Program-made: the position numbers and the translations under genes
Notes under the pieces: generated by a model
The model's database searches: none
The model's input: only the letters and a program-made list of their open reading frames with translations
Told to the model about the DNA's origin: nothing
Part shown: positions 39,088 to 43,878 of the stretch, piece by piece
Layout: each line of letters begins with the position of its first letter
Position numbering within the stretch: position 1 is the stretch's first letter
From: Candidatus Latescibacterota bacterium
Lineage (GTDB): Bacteria; Latescibacterota; UBA2968; UBA8231
Length of the DNA: 64,000 nt
Reading direction: 5' to 3'
Assembly (NCBI GenBank): GCA_965221775.1
Contig: CBDCSU010000006.1
Coordinates: forward strand, 2,240,001 to 2,304,000

Positions 39088-41343
39088 TCAATCGGCGACG
39101 GCGATGATCCTCGAGGCCTCCTGCTGCATCCGCACGAGGCCGTGGAAGACGCCGCGCCGCTCCATCAGCTCCTCGTGGCTGCCCACCTCGACGATCCGTC
39201 CCTCCTCCAGCACCACCAGGCGCTCCGCGTCCCTCAGGGTCGACAGCCTGTGGGCGATGGCGAAGGTGGTGCGGCCTCTCACCATGCGGTGCACGGCCTG
39301 CTGGATCTGCTTTTCCGTCTCCACGTCCACCGACGAGGTCGCCTCGTCGAGGATCAGGATCTTCGGGTCGTGGAGCATGGCCCGGGCGATGGCCACCCGC
39401 TGGCGCTCGCCGCCGGAGAGGCTGTTGCCCTGCTCTCCGACCTGGGTCTCGTAGCCGTCGGGCTTGGCGACGATGAAGTTGTGGGCGTTGGCCAGCCGGG
39501 CGGCGGAGACGATCTCCTCGAACTTCGCCCCCGGCTTTCCGTAGCCGATGTTCTCGGCGATGGTCCCGGAGAACAGCACCGGCTCCTGGGAGACGATGCC
39601 GATCTGGCGCCGCAGGTCGCGCAGGTTGATGCGGCGTATGTCGACGCCGTCGATCTCGATGGAGCCGTGATCGACATCGTAGAACCGGGCGATGAGGTTC
39701 ACCGTCGTCGTCTTGCCGACGCCGGAGCGCCCCACGAGTCCGATCATCTCCTCGGCGCCCACGTCGAGGTCGATGCCTTTGAGAACCGGCTTGCTCTTGT
39801 CGTAGCCGAAGGTCGCGTCGGCGAACCGGATCCGTCCCTGCATCCCGGGCATGCGCACGGCCCGGGCGTCGTCGTACGACTCGGGTACGGTGTCGATGAC
39901 CTCGAAGACGCGCTCGGCGCCGGCGAAGGCCCGCGTCATCCAGGAGTTGACCTGGCCGAACCACTCCAGGGGCTCGTAGATCTTCGCCATGCACCAGCTG
40001 ATGGCCAGCAGGGTGCCGATGGTCAGCTCGCCGGCGATCACATCCTGGCCGCCGAAGTACCAGATGATGATCGCGCCGAGGCCGGTGAGGAAGGAGATGG
40101 TGGCGAAGAACACGGTGCGGTTGACGCCCGTGCGCACGCTGATCCCGGTGATCTTGCGGTTCAGGCGCGCAAAGGCGCCGATCTCGCGGCCCTCCTGGGC
40201 GAAGGCCTTGACCACGCGGATGCCGGTGAGGGCCTCGGCGGTGCGATCGGTCAGGTTCGACCACATCTCGCCCCAGCGCGTGAAGAGCCGGCGCAGGCGC
40301 CTCCAGAACACGGCGCCCCAGACCAGGATGAAGGGCACCGGGACCAGGATGTAGAGAGTCAGCTCCCAGTTCAGCCAGAGCAGGACCCCCAGGATGACGA
40401 GGATGACCAGGGCGTTGATGACGAGGTAGGGGAGACCGTCGACGAGGAAGTCCTGGAGCCGGCCCGTGTCGCGGGTGACCCGCGACATGAGGGCCCCCAC
40501 CTTGCGCTTGTCGTAGAACTGCAGCGACAGCATCTCCAGCCGGCGGTAGAGCTCGCCGCGGATGTCGGCCGTGGCCCGGGCCCCGAGCCAGGCGGCGATC
40601 CACCCGTGGACCCACTCGGCGGCCCAGCTGACGAGGCGGATCCCCACCAGGGCCAGAACCAGAAAGCCCAGCAGCCGGAGGCGGGACTCCGGATCTGCCG
40701 GGCTGTCGTCGGCGGCCTCCACGGGCACCAGGACCTTGTCGAAGAAATGCTTGATCACCCACGGTGACGCCGCCTCGGCCCCGGTGGTGACCAGGGAGGC
40801 GACAGCCAGGGTCACGACCTTCCACGGGTACGGCGCCATGTAGCGCGAGATGCGCTTGAGGGTGGACCACTTGCGGATGCAGGCGGGACAGACGCCGTCG
40901 CGCTCCGGCAGCAGCCGGGAGCACTTCCCGCACCGGAGGCGCTCGAGGCGCGGGTTGATGAGGAAGGGCTCGCCGGCGCGCAGCTGCTCCAGCCCCCGGG
41001 CCACCTCGGAGAACTTCTCCCCCATGGACTGGGTGTAGGGGACGGCCACGGTGGGGGCCGAGCGGCGCTCGATCTCGAGCCGTCCACCGCCGACGAGGAG
41101 CTCCGTACGCACCCGGGTCACCTCGGCCAGGGGGATCGACAGGGCGCCGTTGGCCGAGGGCTCGTCGACGACGACGATGCGGCGGGAGGATGCGGCCAGC
41201 CAGCGGCAGCCGAAGGCCCTGCCTTCCGCCTCCATGTCGGCCTGGACCTGGATCAGGGCCTCCTCCCTTTCCAGGGCGGCCAGGATCCTGGCCTCAACCT
41301 CGGGAGAGACGGCCTCGATCAGTCGTGATTCCGGGCTCGTCAT
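39088..41343 (-). CDS. ABC exporter (TMD+NBD) with N-terminal PH-like and Cys4 zinc-ribbon extension, paralogue of the adjacent gene
   Basis: CGKCS...CPAC; GRSGVGKT, LSGGERQR, ILILDEATS, IAHRLST. Confidence 0.92.
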   Translation of the reverse strand: MTSPESRLIEAVSPEVEARILAALEREEALIQVQADMEAEGRAFGCRWLAASSRRIVVVDEPSANGALSIPLAEVTRVRTELLVGGGRLEIERRSAPTVAVPYTQSMGEKFSEVARGLEQLRAGEPFLINPRLERLRCGKCSRLLPERDGVCPACIRKWSTLKRISRYMAPYPWKVVTLAVASLVTTGAEAASPWVIKHFFDKVLVPVEAADDSPADPESRLRLLGFLVLALVGIRLVSWAAEWVHGWIAAWLGARATADIRGELYRRLEMLSLQFYDKRKVGALMSRVTRDTGRLQDFLVDGLPYLVINALVILVILGVLLWLNWELTLYILVPVPFILVWGAVFWRRLRRLFTRWGEMWSNLTDRTAEALTGIRVVKAFAQEGREIGAFARLNRKITGISVRTGVNRTVFFATISFLTGLGAIIIWYFGGQDVIAGELTIGTLLAISWCMAKIYEPLEWFGQVNSWMTRAFAGAERVFEVIDTVPESYDDARAVRMPGMQGRIRFADATFGYDKSKPVLKGIDLDVGAEEMIGLVGRSGVGKTTTVNLIARFYDVDHGSIEIDGVDIRRINLRDLRRQIGIVSQEPVLFSGTIAENIGYGKPGAKFEEIVSAARLANAHNFIVAKPDGYETQVGEQGNSLSGGERQRVAIARAMLHDPKILILDEATSSVDVETEKQIQQAVHRMVRGRTTFAIAHRLSTLRDAERLVVLEEGRIVEVGSHEELMERRGVFHGLVRMQQEASRIIAVAD

Positions 41344-41384: not shown

Positions 41385-41430
41385 GAAACAGCGCCCGCCG
41401 GCCCGGAGGCGTCCGGACCGGCGGGCGTTG
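41385..41430 (-). terminator. GC-rich hairpin downstream of the HTH gene, possible weak terminator
   Basis: Inverted repeat cagcgcccgccgg...ccggcgggcgttg, followed by only a short TGTTT on the minus strand. Confidence 0.45.
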
Positions 41431-41503
41431 GTCGATGATGGTTGCGCGGCTGCCGGGGGCAGCCCTCTCTCCGGCTCTCCCGTCGGAGCCGGATCCGTGT
41501 CTC

Positions 41504-41686
41504 CTAGGCCCGGGACCGCGCCGCCCGGCGGGCGTTGCGCTGGCGGGCGAAGGGCGTCTCGATACCGTACTGGCGGCAGAGGCGGCCGAAGGTGCCCCCC
41601 GCGATGCCCAGGGCCTTGCTGGCCTCGGAGTTGCTGTTGTAGACCCGGGCTGCTCTTTCGATCCACTCTCTCGGGACCTTCTGCAT
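41504..41686 (-). CDS. small basic helix-turn-helix protein (60 aa)
   Basis: Strong SD GAGGAAGGAG; MQKVPREWIERAARVYNSNSEASKALGIAGGTFGRLCRQYGIETP shows the Fis-like 'AS.ALGI...T..RL.R.YGI' pattern. Confidence 0.8.
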   Translation of the reverse strand: MQKVPREWIERAARVYNSNSEASKALGIAGGTFGRLCRQYGIETPFARQRNARRAARSRA

Positions 41687-41979
41687 CGGTCTCCTTCCTC
41701 TCGCGATGCATGCGAACGTCGCCGCGGTCTCGCCGTCGCGGGTGGTTCGCGAGTTCGGGCGGGACGACGCTGGCCTCCTGTTCCAGCAGCCGCGACCCCG
41801 CCGGGCGGGTGGATGCCGGCAGGCGGTGAGTGGGCCCGGTCCTGCGGACACCGCCCCCGAATCGGGAACCCCCGTCCGTCGACGGAGGCTCCGGCGCCGG
41901 CCCGCGTGCCGTACCGATCGCGGGTCCCGCGCTGCCTCGGAGTCCGGGGGGAGCGACCCCGGCGGACTCCGGGTGCAAC

Positions 41980-42025
41980 AAAAAAACCGGCTGCAGGTGT
42001 TCCCCTTGCGGGAGCCTGCAGCCGG
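41980..42025 (-). terminator. intrinsic (rho-independent) terminator
   Basis: Perfect 11-bp stem CCGGCTGCAGG (41987-41997) / CCTGCAGCCGG (42015-42025) followed by T7 on the minus strand. Confidence 0.85.
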
Positions 42026-42390
42026 CTGGCAGAAGCCGTTGGGATCCGATCCCCACGGCTGTCGTCGCTGTCGCTTCAGCGATTCAACCTCCGGGATCTC
42101 CTCCCGCTGCAGGCCCCGTGCGGGGCTTGATGACCGCCCCGCCCATGGTGGAACCGGGGAGGGTCATCGGGGTGATCTCGTTCTCGTGGAGCCGGTGGAA
42201 CCCCATCCCCCCTTCGCCCGGGCCCGATACGCCCCGGCAGCCGCCGGAGGCGGAGGGGGCGGTCGTTCCGGCGAACGCCGCCTGCGGACCCGTAAACCCG
42301 AACGGGTGCAAGGGGGATTGTGGGATTCGGCTGATCATCCGGCTCTCGAAAGCTCCTTGAAGTCCATCTGATGAGGTCCTGTGCAACGCG
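41980..42390 (-). ncRNA. putative structured non-coding RNA or attenuator leader of unrecognised family
   Basis: Bounded by a sigma70-like promoter and an intrinsic terminator; nested long-range helices and several hairpins. Confidence 0.45.
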
Positions 42391-42394
42391 AACG

Positions 42395-42424
42395 AACCTA
42401 TCCGGGGTTCCGGCACAATGTCAA
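42395..42424 (-). promoter_or_regulatory. sigma70-type promoter
   Basis: TTGACA (42424-42419), 18-nt spacer, TAGGTT (42400-42395). Confidence 0.6.
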
Positions 42425-42516
42425 GGGAAAAAGCGTCCCCCGCCCGGGTGGCGCGGTCCGTCGGGATCCAGCGGCGCAAAGTCCCCCCGGTCCGCCTCTC
42501 CCGCTTCGGGCCGCTT

Positions 42517-43878
42517 TCAACCGATGGCGGTCCTGAAGGCCTCGCCCCGGGCCGCATAGTCGGAGAACATGCCGAAGCTGGCGCAGCCCGGCGACAGCAG
42601 CACGACGCCGCCGGCCGGGGCCAGTTCGGCGGCCCGGCGGACCGCCGCCTCCATGGACGGGCAGTCGGCGGCCGCCGGCCCGCGGAATCCGGCCGCCGCG
42701 GCGGCCGAGGCGATGGCCGGACCCTCCTCTCCCAGGGTCACCAGCGCCGCCGCCGACCGGGCGATGGCGGCTCCCAGACCTGCGAAGGATCCGCCCTTGG
42801 AGGCTCCCCCGGCGATGAGCACCACCGGTCGGCCGGCATACGCCGCCAGGCCCGCCGCCGCCGCCTCCGGAGTCGTGGCCAGGGAGTCGTTGACGAACAG
42901 CACGCCGCCCCGCTCCGCCACCTCCTCGAGGCGGTGCGGGAGGGACTCGACGGCGCTCAGACCCTGGCCGACGGCCGCCGCGGAAGCGCCGCACAGGCGC
43001 GCCGCCCCGGCGGCGGCGCAGGCGTTGGCGAGGTTGTGGGTCCCCCGCAGACGGAGATCGCTCACCGCGGCCAGGCTCTCGACCCGGCCGTCCTCCCGCC
43101 AGCGGATCTCGCCCGCCTCGCTCCAGCAGCCATCGCCCTCCAGGGGCGGCGCGGCGCGGAACCCGAGGCTCCGCCCAGGGCTCCGGGCGGCGAGCTCGCC
43201 GGCGGTGGCGTCGCCGGCGCTGGAGACGACCCAGTCGCCGCGGCCCTGGCAGCGGCAGATCGCCGCCTTGGCCTCGACGTACTCCGCCCGGCTGGCGTGG
43301 TAGTCGAGATGGTCGAGGGTCACGGGCAGGATCACGGCCCCGTGGGGGCTTCGATCCAGATCCTGTAGCTGGAAGCTGGAGAGCTCCAGCACGACCACGT
43401 CCGCGGCGGACAGGTCGTCGAGGAAGCCGACGGGCGGTATTCCGATGTTGCCGCCCAGGTGCGGGGACAGACCGGGCTCGCGCCGCAGGATCGAGTCCAG
43501 GAGGGAAGCGGTCGTGCCCTTGCCCTTGGTCCCGGTGATGCCGATCACCGGCGCCGGGCAGCGTTCGAGGAAGAGCGCCGTCTGGCTGCTGACCTCCGTG
43601 CCGCGCCGGCGGGCCTGCTCCAGCTCCGGGCGCAGGGACGGGATGCCGGGGGAGCGGAAGATCAGGTCGAAGTCGTGGAGGCGGTCGAAGCACCCCGGGC
43701 CGAGGCGCCACTCCAGGACCGCCTCCTTCCAGGGGGCCCCATCGAGGCGGCGGGCCGGGTCGGCGTCGCAGACGGCAAAGCCGAGTCCACGGGAGGCCAG
43801 CCAGCGGCCCAGGGCCTGGTTCTCGACGCCGAGACCGAGGAGGGCCAGGCGGCGGTCCTGAAGAGCGTCGAGCTCCAA
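42517..43878 (-). CDS. murD: UDP-N-acetylmuramoyl-L-alanine--D-glutamate ligase
   Basis: SPGI, GITGTKGKGTT, GGNIG, VLELSSFQL, DHLDYH, HRLE, NDSLAT, LIAGG..KG, LSPGCASF...RG. Confidence 0.93.
   Translation of the reverse strand: MELDALQDRRLALLGLGVENQALGRWLASRGLGFAVCDADPARRLDGAPWKEAVLEWRLGPGCFDRLHDFDLIFRSPGIPSLRPELEQARRRGTEVSSQTALFLERCPAPVIGITGTKGKGTTASLLDSILRREPGLSPHLGGNIGIPPVGFLDDLSAADVVVLELSSFQLQDLDRSPHGAVILPVTLDHLDYHASRAEYVEAKAAICRCQGRGDWVVSSAGDATAGELAARSPGRSLGFRAAPPLEGDGCWSEAGEIRWREDGRVESLAAVSDLRLRGTHNLANACAAAGAARLCGASAAAVGQGLSAVESLPHRLEEVAERGGVLFVNDSLATTPEAAAAGLAAYAGRPVVLIAGGASKGGSFAGLGAAIARSAAALVTLGEEGPAIASAAAAAGFRGPAAADCPSMEAAVRRAAELAPAGGVVLLSPGCASFGMFSDYAARGEAFRTAIG

Follow-up and report, generated by a model that had tools for sequence, protein, structure and literature searches.

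The locus and its features

This report concerns a putative regulatory element carried by a 64,000-nucleotide (nt) stretch of the genome of an uncultured Candidatus Latescibacterota bacterium. The whole of that stretch is referred to here as the window, and all positions are window coordinates. The features of the element all lie on the minus strand. Between the end of murD at 42517 and the start of the first gene for an ABC half-transporter at 41343 there are a promoter, an open reading frame (ORF) of 84 amino acids (aa), two tandem hairpins, T1 and T2, and the gene for a 60-aa helix-turn-helix (HTH)-like protein (Table 1). The operon in the window is thus ordered leader ORF, T1 and T2, HTH gene, two ABC half-transporter genes (ABC1 and ABC2) and a gene for a DUF1854 protein. 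The element is read here, with moderate confidence, as a ribosome-dependent (leader-ORF) transcription attenuator resembling that of bmrB-bmrCD in Bacillus subtilis, and it probably gates the ABC-exporter operon in this uncultured lineage.

An initial annotation, made from the sequence of the window alone, had described the interval as a structured RNA of about 410 nt with a terminator and antiterminator upstream of the HTH gene. Much of this anatomy has been borne out. The promoter, TTGACA and TAGGTT separated by 18 nt (42424-42395), can be read in the sequence and recurs among relatives. The perfect 11-base-pair (bp) terminator followed by seven Ts (42025-41980) is present and is conserved with compensatory changes. 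Hairpins had been placed near 42113-42126 and 42034-42060; both exist, the latter being T1. A copy of the 3' arm of the terminator is found at 42114-42106, and the antiterminator pairing suggested for 42106-42115 with the 5' arm of the terminator is both conserved and covarying. Downstream of these features lies, as described, the 60-aa HTH gene with its strong Shine-Dalgarno sequence.

Table 1. Coordinates of the element and of the genes that follow it in the window
Feature	Position	Strand	Details
Promoter	42395..42432	-	T-rich stretch; -35 TTGACA 42424-42419; 18-nt spacer; -10 TAGGTT 42400-42395
5' untranslated region (predicted)	42339..42388	-	about 50 nt; start near 42388 predicted from the promoter
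Leader ORF	42084..42338	-	84 aa; ATG at 42338; TGA 42086-42084; MISRIPQSPLHPFGFTGPQ...AVIKPRTGPAAGGDPGG*
Hairpin GCCCC/GGGGC	42126-42113	-	read from the sequence
Antiterminator, 5' strand	42103..42114	-	codons G-P-A-A-G; core GCCTGCAGC at 42114-42106, a copy of the T2 3' arm
Hairpin A (tentative)	42061..42088	-	after and partly over the stop; TCGCTG 42082-42077 with CAGCGA 42070-42065; basal GTTG/CGAC
T1 hairpin	42036..42058	-	CCGTGGGG...CCCAACGG
T2 intrinsic terminator	41980..42025	-	11-bp stem, arms CCGGCTGCAGG 42025-42015 and CCTGCAGCCGG 41997-41987; 17-nt loop region; T7 41986-41980
Antiterminator, 3' strand	42014..42025	-	the T2 5' arm
Spacer, T2 to HTH gene	41687..41979	-	293 nt; clade-specific hairpin about 41970-41936
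60-aa HTH-like protein gene	41504..41686	-	strong Shine-Dalgarno GGAAGGAGA
GC-rich hairpin	41392..41427	-	16 bp, weak T tail; between HTH gene and ABC1
ABC half-transporter 1 (ABC1)	41343-39088	-	751 aa; Pfam ABC_membrane and ABC_tran
ABC half-transporter 2 (ABC2)	39083-36810	-	757 aa; Pfam ABC_membrane and ABC_tran
DUF1854 protein	36813-36289	-	DUF1854 at 1.8e-41

The related loci used for comparison come from a search with a covariance model, R1, built on the 3' domain of the element, which found the element, always as a single copy, in 25 of 76 family genomes, representing 10 of the 18 genera. The promoter is well preserved among them. Its -35 hexamer is perfect in the window, where a long G+C-rich stretch follows, and the motif CTTGACATTGT...TAnnTT aligns in every relative for which upstream DNA is available. 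A regular expression for the promoter matches 22 of the 25 loci; one of the others ends at a contig edge, and the two remaining, in which the locus has decayed, have no match. A scan for consensus promoters and terminators over the window listed neither this promoter nor T2, the former because TAGGTT agrees with only three of the six positions of TATAAT, the latter because its loop is longer than 8 nt. Conservation across relatives nonetheless supports both as candidate signals. In the window's clade only, a mini-ORF of 10 codons, MDFKELSRAG (42339-42371), precedes the leader ORF, its stop overlapping the leader start as ATGA; it is not present in L005, a relative of 80% identity.

Evidence for a leader ORF

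The initial annotation had recognised no convincing protein in its interval of about 410 nt. A conserved ORF in fact fills 42338-42084. In all 25 related genomes this frame is open for 63-173 codons up to an aligned stop, and many of these genomes have a G+C content of only 52-61%. Between the predicted transcription start and the stop of the ORF, 17 lineages hold 15 stop codons in the leader frame, all of them close to the 5' end, whereas the other two frames together contain 158. The window by itself is a poor place to see this: at 72% G+C, 697 of 2000 shuffled sequences are as open as the leader frame, so that openness is uninformative at this composition and the protein went unseen at first inspection. 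The corresponding figure falls to 12-112 of 2000 in 15 lineages of lower G+C, and the Fisher combined p over the 17 lineages is 5e-11, a value that overstates the independence of the data, as does the permutation test described below, since the lineages and alignment rows are related.

The end of the ORF carries further signs of coding. Its stop codon stands at one aligned position and has turned over, being TGA in 19, TAA in two and TAG in one of the 22 rows that are in register. The third Ala codon before the stop is GCG in eight rows, GCT in seven, GCA in four and GCC in three; Gly codons near the end likewise vary synonymously, and the ratio of non-synonymous to synonymous change (pN/pS) is 0.48 over the last eight codons. 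One clade has an insertion of exactly 3 nt inside this end stretch. The last ten or so residues are conserved, with a C-terminal PAA[G/W]x[D/S][P/S]GG next to the stop. Gene callers have predicted the identical 84-aa protein in three database clusters. Conservation of the frame, the shuffle test and the turnover of stop codons together argue, at the level of sequence, that the leader is translated.

The body of the ORF is fast-evolving and cannot be aligned between clades. Selection appears to act on the frame staying open and on the C-terminal PAA[G/W]x[D/S][P/S]GG. The leader protein matched no Pfam, NCBIfam or PHROGs family, and neither a signal peptide nor a conserved N-terminal end was found in the ORF. 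The idea that an antisense ORF is the real gene was rejected: among 19 loci even the best antisense frame is open in only four, and its stops add up to 27. A role for the C-terminal motif as a general sorting tag was also discarded, as a six-frame search of the genome yielded one convincing instance.

Tandem terminators and a putative antiterminator strand within the ORF

Two hairpins with the properties of intrinsic terminators follow the stop codon. In most relatives T1 is a full intrinsic terminator with a run of seven to nine Us; the U-run has been lost in the window's clade (CTTCTGCC). U-runs follow both hairpins in most relatives. Pairing is maintained in 96.9% of cases for T1 and 96.8% for T2, and in each hairpin four pairs have changed on both sides. 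When the full-length RNA is folded, T2 is part of the minimum free energy (MFE) structure in 23 of the 25 sequences. Hairpin A is a tentative part of the element: a stem-loop is predicted at the same place in most relatives with a different sequence, the z-score being below -1 in 12 of 25, and its register is not constant.

The 5' arm of T2 doubles as the 3' strand of a putative antiterminator, the 5' strand of which lies inside the ORF, 17-28 nt before the stop, at a distance that is fixed except for one 3-nt insertion or deletion. Over 12 pairs and 25 sequences, 86.8% of cells are paired, and five of the 12 pairs have changed on both sides. Taken together as tested, the antiterminator helix and T1 are 91.2% paired, a figure that falls to 32-46% when the partner is slid by 1-3 columns. 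Compensation can be followed in single loci: in L089 GGCCCGCAGC stands opposite GCTGCGGGCC, with the 3' arm of T2 altered as well, in L091 CAGCTTGG opposite CCAAGCTG, and in L094 GCAGTTTG opposite CAAACTGC. Cognate antiterminator duplexes have a mean energy of -21.06 kcal/mol against -18.15 ± 0.59 kcal/mol for permuted partners, and none of 10000 permutations was as good, although relatedness inflates this contrast. For RNAs truncated ahead of the 3' arm of T2, at least six antiterminator pairs appear in the MFE structure of 17 of 25 sequences.

The codons that contribute the antiterminator strand show a further peculiarity. Third positions in the core of the helix are nearly fixed, Pro being CCT in 17 of 22 rows and the first Ala GCA in 21 of 22, while the third position of the next Ala, which falls at a mismatch in the helix, is free. 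This pattern is the signature of a dual constraint. At the RNA level, conservation is found in the promoter, the last 15 or so codons, T1 and T2, the most conserved nucleotides being the last 45 nt of the ORF and the 3' hairpins. A long hairpin, CCGGAGTCCG...CGGACTCCG, at 41936-41975, directly 3' of T2, is an insertion confined to the window's closest clade.

Structure of the ORF body and known RNA families

The 416-nt RNA as a whole folds better than shuffled sequences (z -4.55, 0 of 100), most of this score coming from the 3' hairpins. Without its last 15 codons, the ORF body of the window has a z-score of -1.5, and the mean over 17 lineages is -1.17, with a range of -5.2 to +1.3; structured bodies occur in four of the 17 (z -5.2, -4.5, -3.0 and -2.6). 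The 80%-identical relative has lost 24 of the MFE pairs predicted for the window and keeps nine through change. Three relatives of about 94-95% identity have 5-7 pairs broken, 3-5 kept by one-sided change and no compensatory pair. The ORF body therefore appears to have no conserved structure, and no conserved covarying aptamer fold of the kind expected of a riboswitch was found. The distance from promoter to stop also varies, from about 290 to 540 nt among relatives.

These results bear on the initial annotation in several ways. Nested long-range pairings had been drawn in the 5' 300 nt; with a body z-score of -1.5, more pairs broken than kept and no possibility of alignment in distant relatives, they are not supported. 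Of the conserved, covarying structure that relatives had been expected to contain, the 3' hairpins and the antiterminator are there, and the 5' body is not. The proposal of a non-coding structured RNA of about 410 nt, or of a ligand-binding riboswitch, gives way to a conserved ORF with a body that lacks conserved structure. The accompanying statement that no known family is represented has held: nothing in the window matched Rfam at the gathering score, and a relaxed threshold gave only two chance-level matches (E 2.9 and 4.6). ARAGORN likewise reported nothing in the window. RNase P RNA (296 bits) and transfer-messenger RNA (180 bits) were dismissed as identities for the element, the genome having its copies of both elsewhere. 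An attractive orphan-riboswitch call is thereby corrected, by a comparison with genomes of lower G+C that alone made the ORF visible.

Transcription of the element

Four marine metatranscriptome runs of one study hold this stretch as assembled contigs, which give no ends, strands or reliable levels. RNA contigs cover 42076-42340, the leader ORF, in all four runs (depths 18.2, 5.6, 4.0 and 22.2), so that the expectation of a transcript from this interval has been confirmed. The spacer and the HTH gene are covered in two of the four (depths 4.6 and 4.9), and one contig, 41496-42049, crosses T2 and extends into the HTH gene. The leader is thus transcribed, and some RNA spans T2; the contigs show no more than this, and the stretches free of RNA cover at 42050-42075 and upstream of 42340 carry no weight here. 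No contig was found over murD or the ABC genes in the four runs, which makes carry-over of DNA unlikely. Contigs stop at 41436 and 41496, before the hairpin at 41392-41427. In three of the four runs they end exactly at 42340, 2 nt upstream of the leader ATG and 48 nt short of the predicted start; this end could be a processing site, a 5' end of the leaderless type or an assembly break at a site that varies between strains.

Distribution and decay of the locus

When 61 relatives were searched at the DNA level, four genomes of the genus contained the full stretch and six more only its last 130 or so nt. The genome itself has one full-length match to the element. Across the phylum, 151 genomes were sampled: 21 of the 63 that belong to the family have a match, and outside the family there is a single weak one, of 38 bits. 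Among the matches listed by a loose pattern scan of metagenomes, the covariance model confirmed one of 80 loci. No paper naming Latescibacter was among those listed by a literature search on leader peptides, attenuators, riboswitches and noncoding RNA, which is no proof that the element is undescribed.

In the more distant relatives L006-L011 a gene on the opposite strand, PAPS-reductase (CysH)-like as judged by reading its translation, is inserted between murD and the promoter of the element; the element therefore travels with its downstream genes and not with murD. Of the 25 loci, 22 have an HTH match downstream, and 19 have a downstream ABC match when the N-terminal 400 aa of ABC1 serve as the tblastn query. 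The gap between element and HTH gene is 30-135 nt in 14 loci, leaving little room for a separate promoter. The regulated unit thus appears to be larger than the HTH gene, and to comprise it together with the two ABC half-transporters and DUF1854. Control of the HTH protein, as initially proposed, agrees with a terminator and antiterminator upstream of its gene; that it should be the only target does not agree with this arrangement.

The element scores lowest where HTH or ABC genes are deleted or broken (L092, L093, L094 and L095). The leader end is altered in L094 and L095, and is degenerate in the former, where the ABC genes are deleted. Deletions in L091, L092 and L094 have joined the C-terminal end of ABC2 directly to the beginning of the HTH gene or to the spacer; the element and DUF1854 remain, and the operon is evidently decaying. 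Only fragments of the ABC gene match in L076.

Proposed ribosome-dependent attenuation and its alternatives

A leader ORF, an intrinsic terminator, an alternative pairing and a switching strand within reach of the ribosome, as an attenuator would have, can all be recognised in the sequence. The position of the antiterminator strand inside the ORF indicates control by ribosomes rather than by an aptamer. Under such a scheme the strong, conserved sigma-70-type promoter would drive the leader ORF, with T1 and T2 following its stop; T2 would be the working terminator in the window, T1 acting as well in relatives, and the HTH and ABC1-ABC2-DUF1854 genes would be reached mainly by read-through. The P-A-A codons would pair with the 5' arm of T2, the resulting helix closing a loop that contains the stop codon, hairpin A and T1. 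As long as a ribosome translated or occupied the last 12 or so codons, the antiterminator strand would stay single-stranded; T2 would then form, together with T1 in relatives, and an abundant short leader RNA would result. Should the ribosome be absent when T2 is made, either because initiation is poor or because it has stalled earlier in the ORF, the antiterminator would form and transcription would read through into the HTH and exporter genes. The direction of the switch may thus run from absence of the ribosome to expression, and the likely inducing condition would be whatever slows or stalls ribosomes on the leader. The conserved C-terminal peptide may serve as a nascent-chain pause or sensor.

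Should this model hold, Latescibacterota, which have no cultured representatives, would gain a first cis-regulatory element, and there would be a handle on the function of the exporter module formed by the two extended ABC half-transporters and DUF1854. The element would also be unusual among described attenuators in combining a fixed C-terminal peptide with a hypervariable ORF of 63-173 codons, tandem terminators and an antiterminator strand supplied by the codons of that peptide.

A number of observations weigh against attenuation and have to be set beside those that favour it. The relatedness of the sequences, noted above, tempers the statistics. Substitutions in the ORF body show no third-position excess in close pairs (16, 24 and 15 by codon position for L001 vs L005); with counts this flat, the claim of coding rests on openness of the frame, stop-codon turnover and the C-terminal end. 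The body thus appears to lie outside ordinary protein selection, which would fit a leader too. No clear Shine-Dalgarno sequence was found before the leader, unlike the HTH gene, and the aligned ORF bodies show neither conserved residues nor runs of regulatory codons. Eight of the 25 truncated RNAs lack the antiterminator in their MFE structure. T1, a strong terminator in most relatives, sits in the loop of the antiterminator with no obvious control by it; hairpin A and GATCCC were tried as antiterminators specific to T1 and set aside for weak evidence and inconsistent register. The 293-nt spacer in the window's clade could hold a promoter of its own. A further complication for the scheme is the hairpin that separates the HTH gene from ABC1 and may act as a second checkpoint. 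Finally, the contig depths derive from a single study and are an unreliable guide to transcript level.

The alternative that survives best takes the ORF for an ordinary gene. Its product would be a small, disordered, fast-evolving protein acting in trans as cargo, partner or regulator of the ABC and DUF1854 proteins and recognised through its C-terminal PAA[G/W]xDPGG, while the tandem terminators would serve only to keep the small protein at a high ratio to the transporter. Leaky terminators behind the precursor genes of peptide-export clusters set such ratios. Prediction by gene callers, a length of 63-173 codons, which is long for a leader peptide, the conserved ORF and C-terminal end (pN/pS 0.48), tight linkage to the ABC operon and the greater contig depth of leader RNA than of HTH RNA are all in keeping with such a protein. 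Left unexplained is the covariation of an ORF-internal strand with the 5' arm of T2, and third positions would not be expected to be nearly fixed in CCT and GCA while that of the next Ala is free. The body lacks the codon-position pattern of protein selection, the protein has no family, signal peptide or conserved N-terminal end, and its C-terminal motif has no second convincing instance among the genome's ORFs. An independent small protein is accordingly doubtful, if the most serious competitor of the attenuator.

It is attractive to consider a more specific version of attenuation, in which the decapeptide PAA[G/W]x[D/S][P/S]GG is a nascent-chain sensor for a small molecule linked to DUF1854 and the ABC proteins and, by holding the ribosome at the stop, sets the fate of the two tandem intrinsic terminators through the ORF-embedded antiterminator; the leader RNA or peptide may then have a second role in trans. 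This is distinctly unlikely; if true, it would represent a new class of arrest-peptide attenuator, found in an uncultured phylum and directed at intrinsic terminators instead of Rho-dependent ones.

Less probable still is that the terminated leader transcript of about 400 nt, or its 3' domain, works in trans as a small RNA, besides or instead of cis attenuation, with a dual function like that of the attenuator-derived rnTrpL. Here the last 45 nt of the ORF and the 3' hairpins, which are the most conserved nucleotides, would be the active part, and the leader RNA is indeed seen in all four metatranscriptome runs without its neighbouring genes; yet the conservation of the 3' domain is fully covered by the terminators, the antiterminator and the ORF end, and the genome has only one full-length match. 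A precedent for such RNAs is reported (PMC6614838, PMC7968998). A ligand-binding riboswitch or purely non-coding structured RNA, with an open frame arising by accident, is hard to credit: the z-score of -4.55 for the whole RNA, the strongly structured bodies in four of 17 lineages and the lack of an Rfam match, which would make it new, have to be set against a frame conserved across 25 genomes, three kinds of stop codon at one place with synonymous variation, a body with no alignable or covarying aptamer (mean z -1.17, and 24 pairs broken vs nine kept in the 80%-identical relative) and a variable length from promoter to stop.

Comparison with known systems

The attenuators of the trp, his, leu and thr operons have leader ORFs of 14-30 codons with runs of cognate codons and precede biosynthetic genes. 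As is proposed here, the leader ORF overlaps an antiterminator strand that competes with an intrinsic terminator, and the position of the ribosome decides the outcome. The present ORF differs in its 63-173 codons, in having no visible codon runs and in preceding a regulator and an exporter. TnaC and SpeFL, leader peptides of 24-34 codons, stall ribosomes at or near their stop and act on Rho-dependent termination. They share with the present leader conserved C-terminal residues next to a fixed stop and a termination decision immediately downstream, although stalling would be a conjecture here; the terminators of the element are intrinsic, where those of TnaC and SpeFL are Rho-dependent, and its ORF is longer.

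The closest parallel is offered by bmrB-bmrCD of B. subtilis, in which a translated leader ORF with alternative stem-loops precedes a heterodimeric ABC exporter (Reilman et al. 2014, PMC4191407). Both systems place a small ORF, translated in bmrB, upstream of a pair of ABC half-transporters, and both have alternative stem-loops that include an intrinsic terminator, with the exporter co-transcribed by read-through. No sequence relation between them was found, the leader here belonging to no family. It is also longer and hypervariable, and ends in a conserved C-terminal decapeptide. Two tandem hairpin terminators follow its stop, whereas in bmrB the terminator reportedly lies within the ORF. An HTH gene is interposed here between leader and exporter, and the ABC proteins have an extra N-terminal region of about 170 aa and the accompanying DUF1854 protein.

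In Sinorhizobium, an attenuator gives rise to the small RNA rnTrpL and to the leader peptide peTrpL (PMC6614838, PMC7298713). The resemblance lies in an abundant terminated leader that could have a second role and in a link to efflux genes; the present leader is of other size and sequence.

The downstream genes

The 60-aa protein reaches only 18.3 bits (E 0.0019) with Pfam HTH_50, for which the cut-off is 27, and no NCBIfam or PHROGs family was found for it. It falls into 67 database clusters, for which the source names, where shown, are all 'hypothetical protein'. Both ABC proteins have as their best NCBIfam model NF052233, 'cyanophycin metabolism-associated ABC transporter', with end-to-end alignments scoring 618 and 620 bits against a cut-off of 880. 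Their extra N-terminal region of about 170 aa carries a CxxC...CxxC motif resembling a zinc ribbon, for which Pfam zinc-ribbon matches are below threshold.

The HTH protein belongs to a multi-copy family, of which this genome has 11 copies, contigs C1, C4, C5 and C6 among their locations. The element was looked for upstream of the paralogues and is not found with any of the 10 other copies. HTH matches are present in 70 of 75 other genomes of the family, as against one of 92 in other families of the phylum, and are thus specific to the lineage. Two copies lie on C1, a small contig of 37 kilobases, and another is situated immediately after a tRNA-like sequence that has AT-rich repeats (C4, near 39111); the placement of these copies suggests mobile elements.

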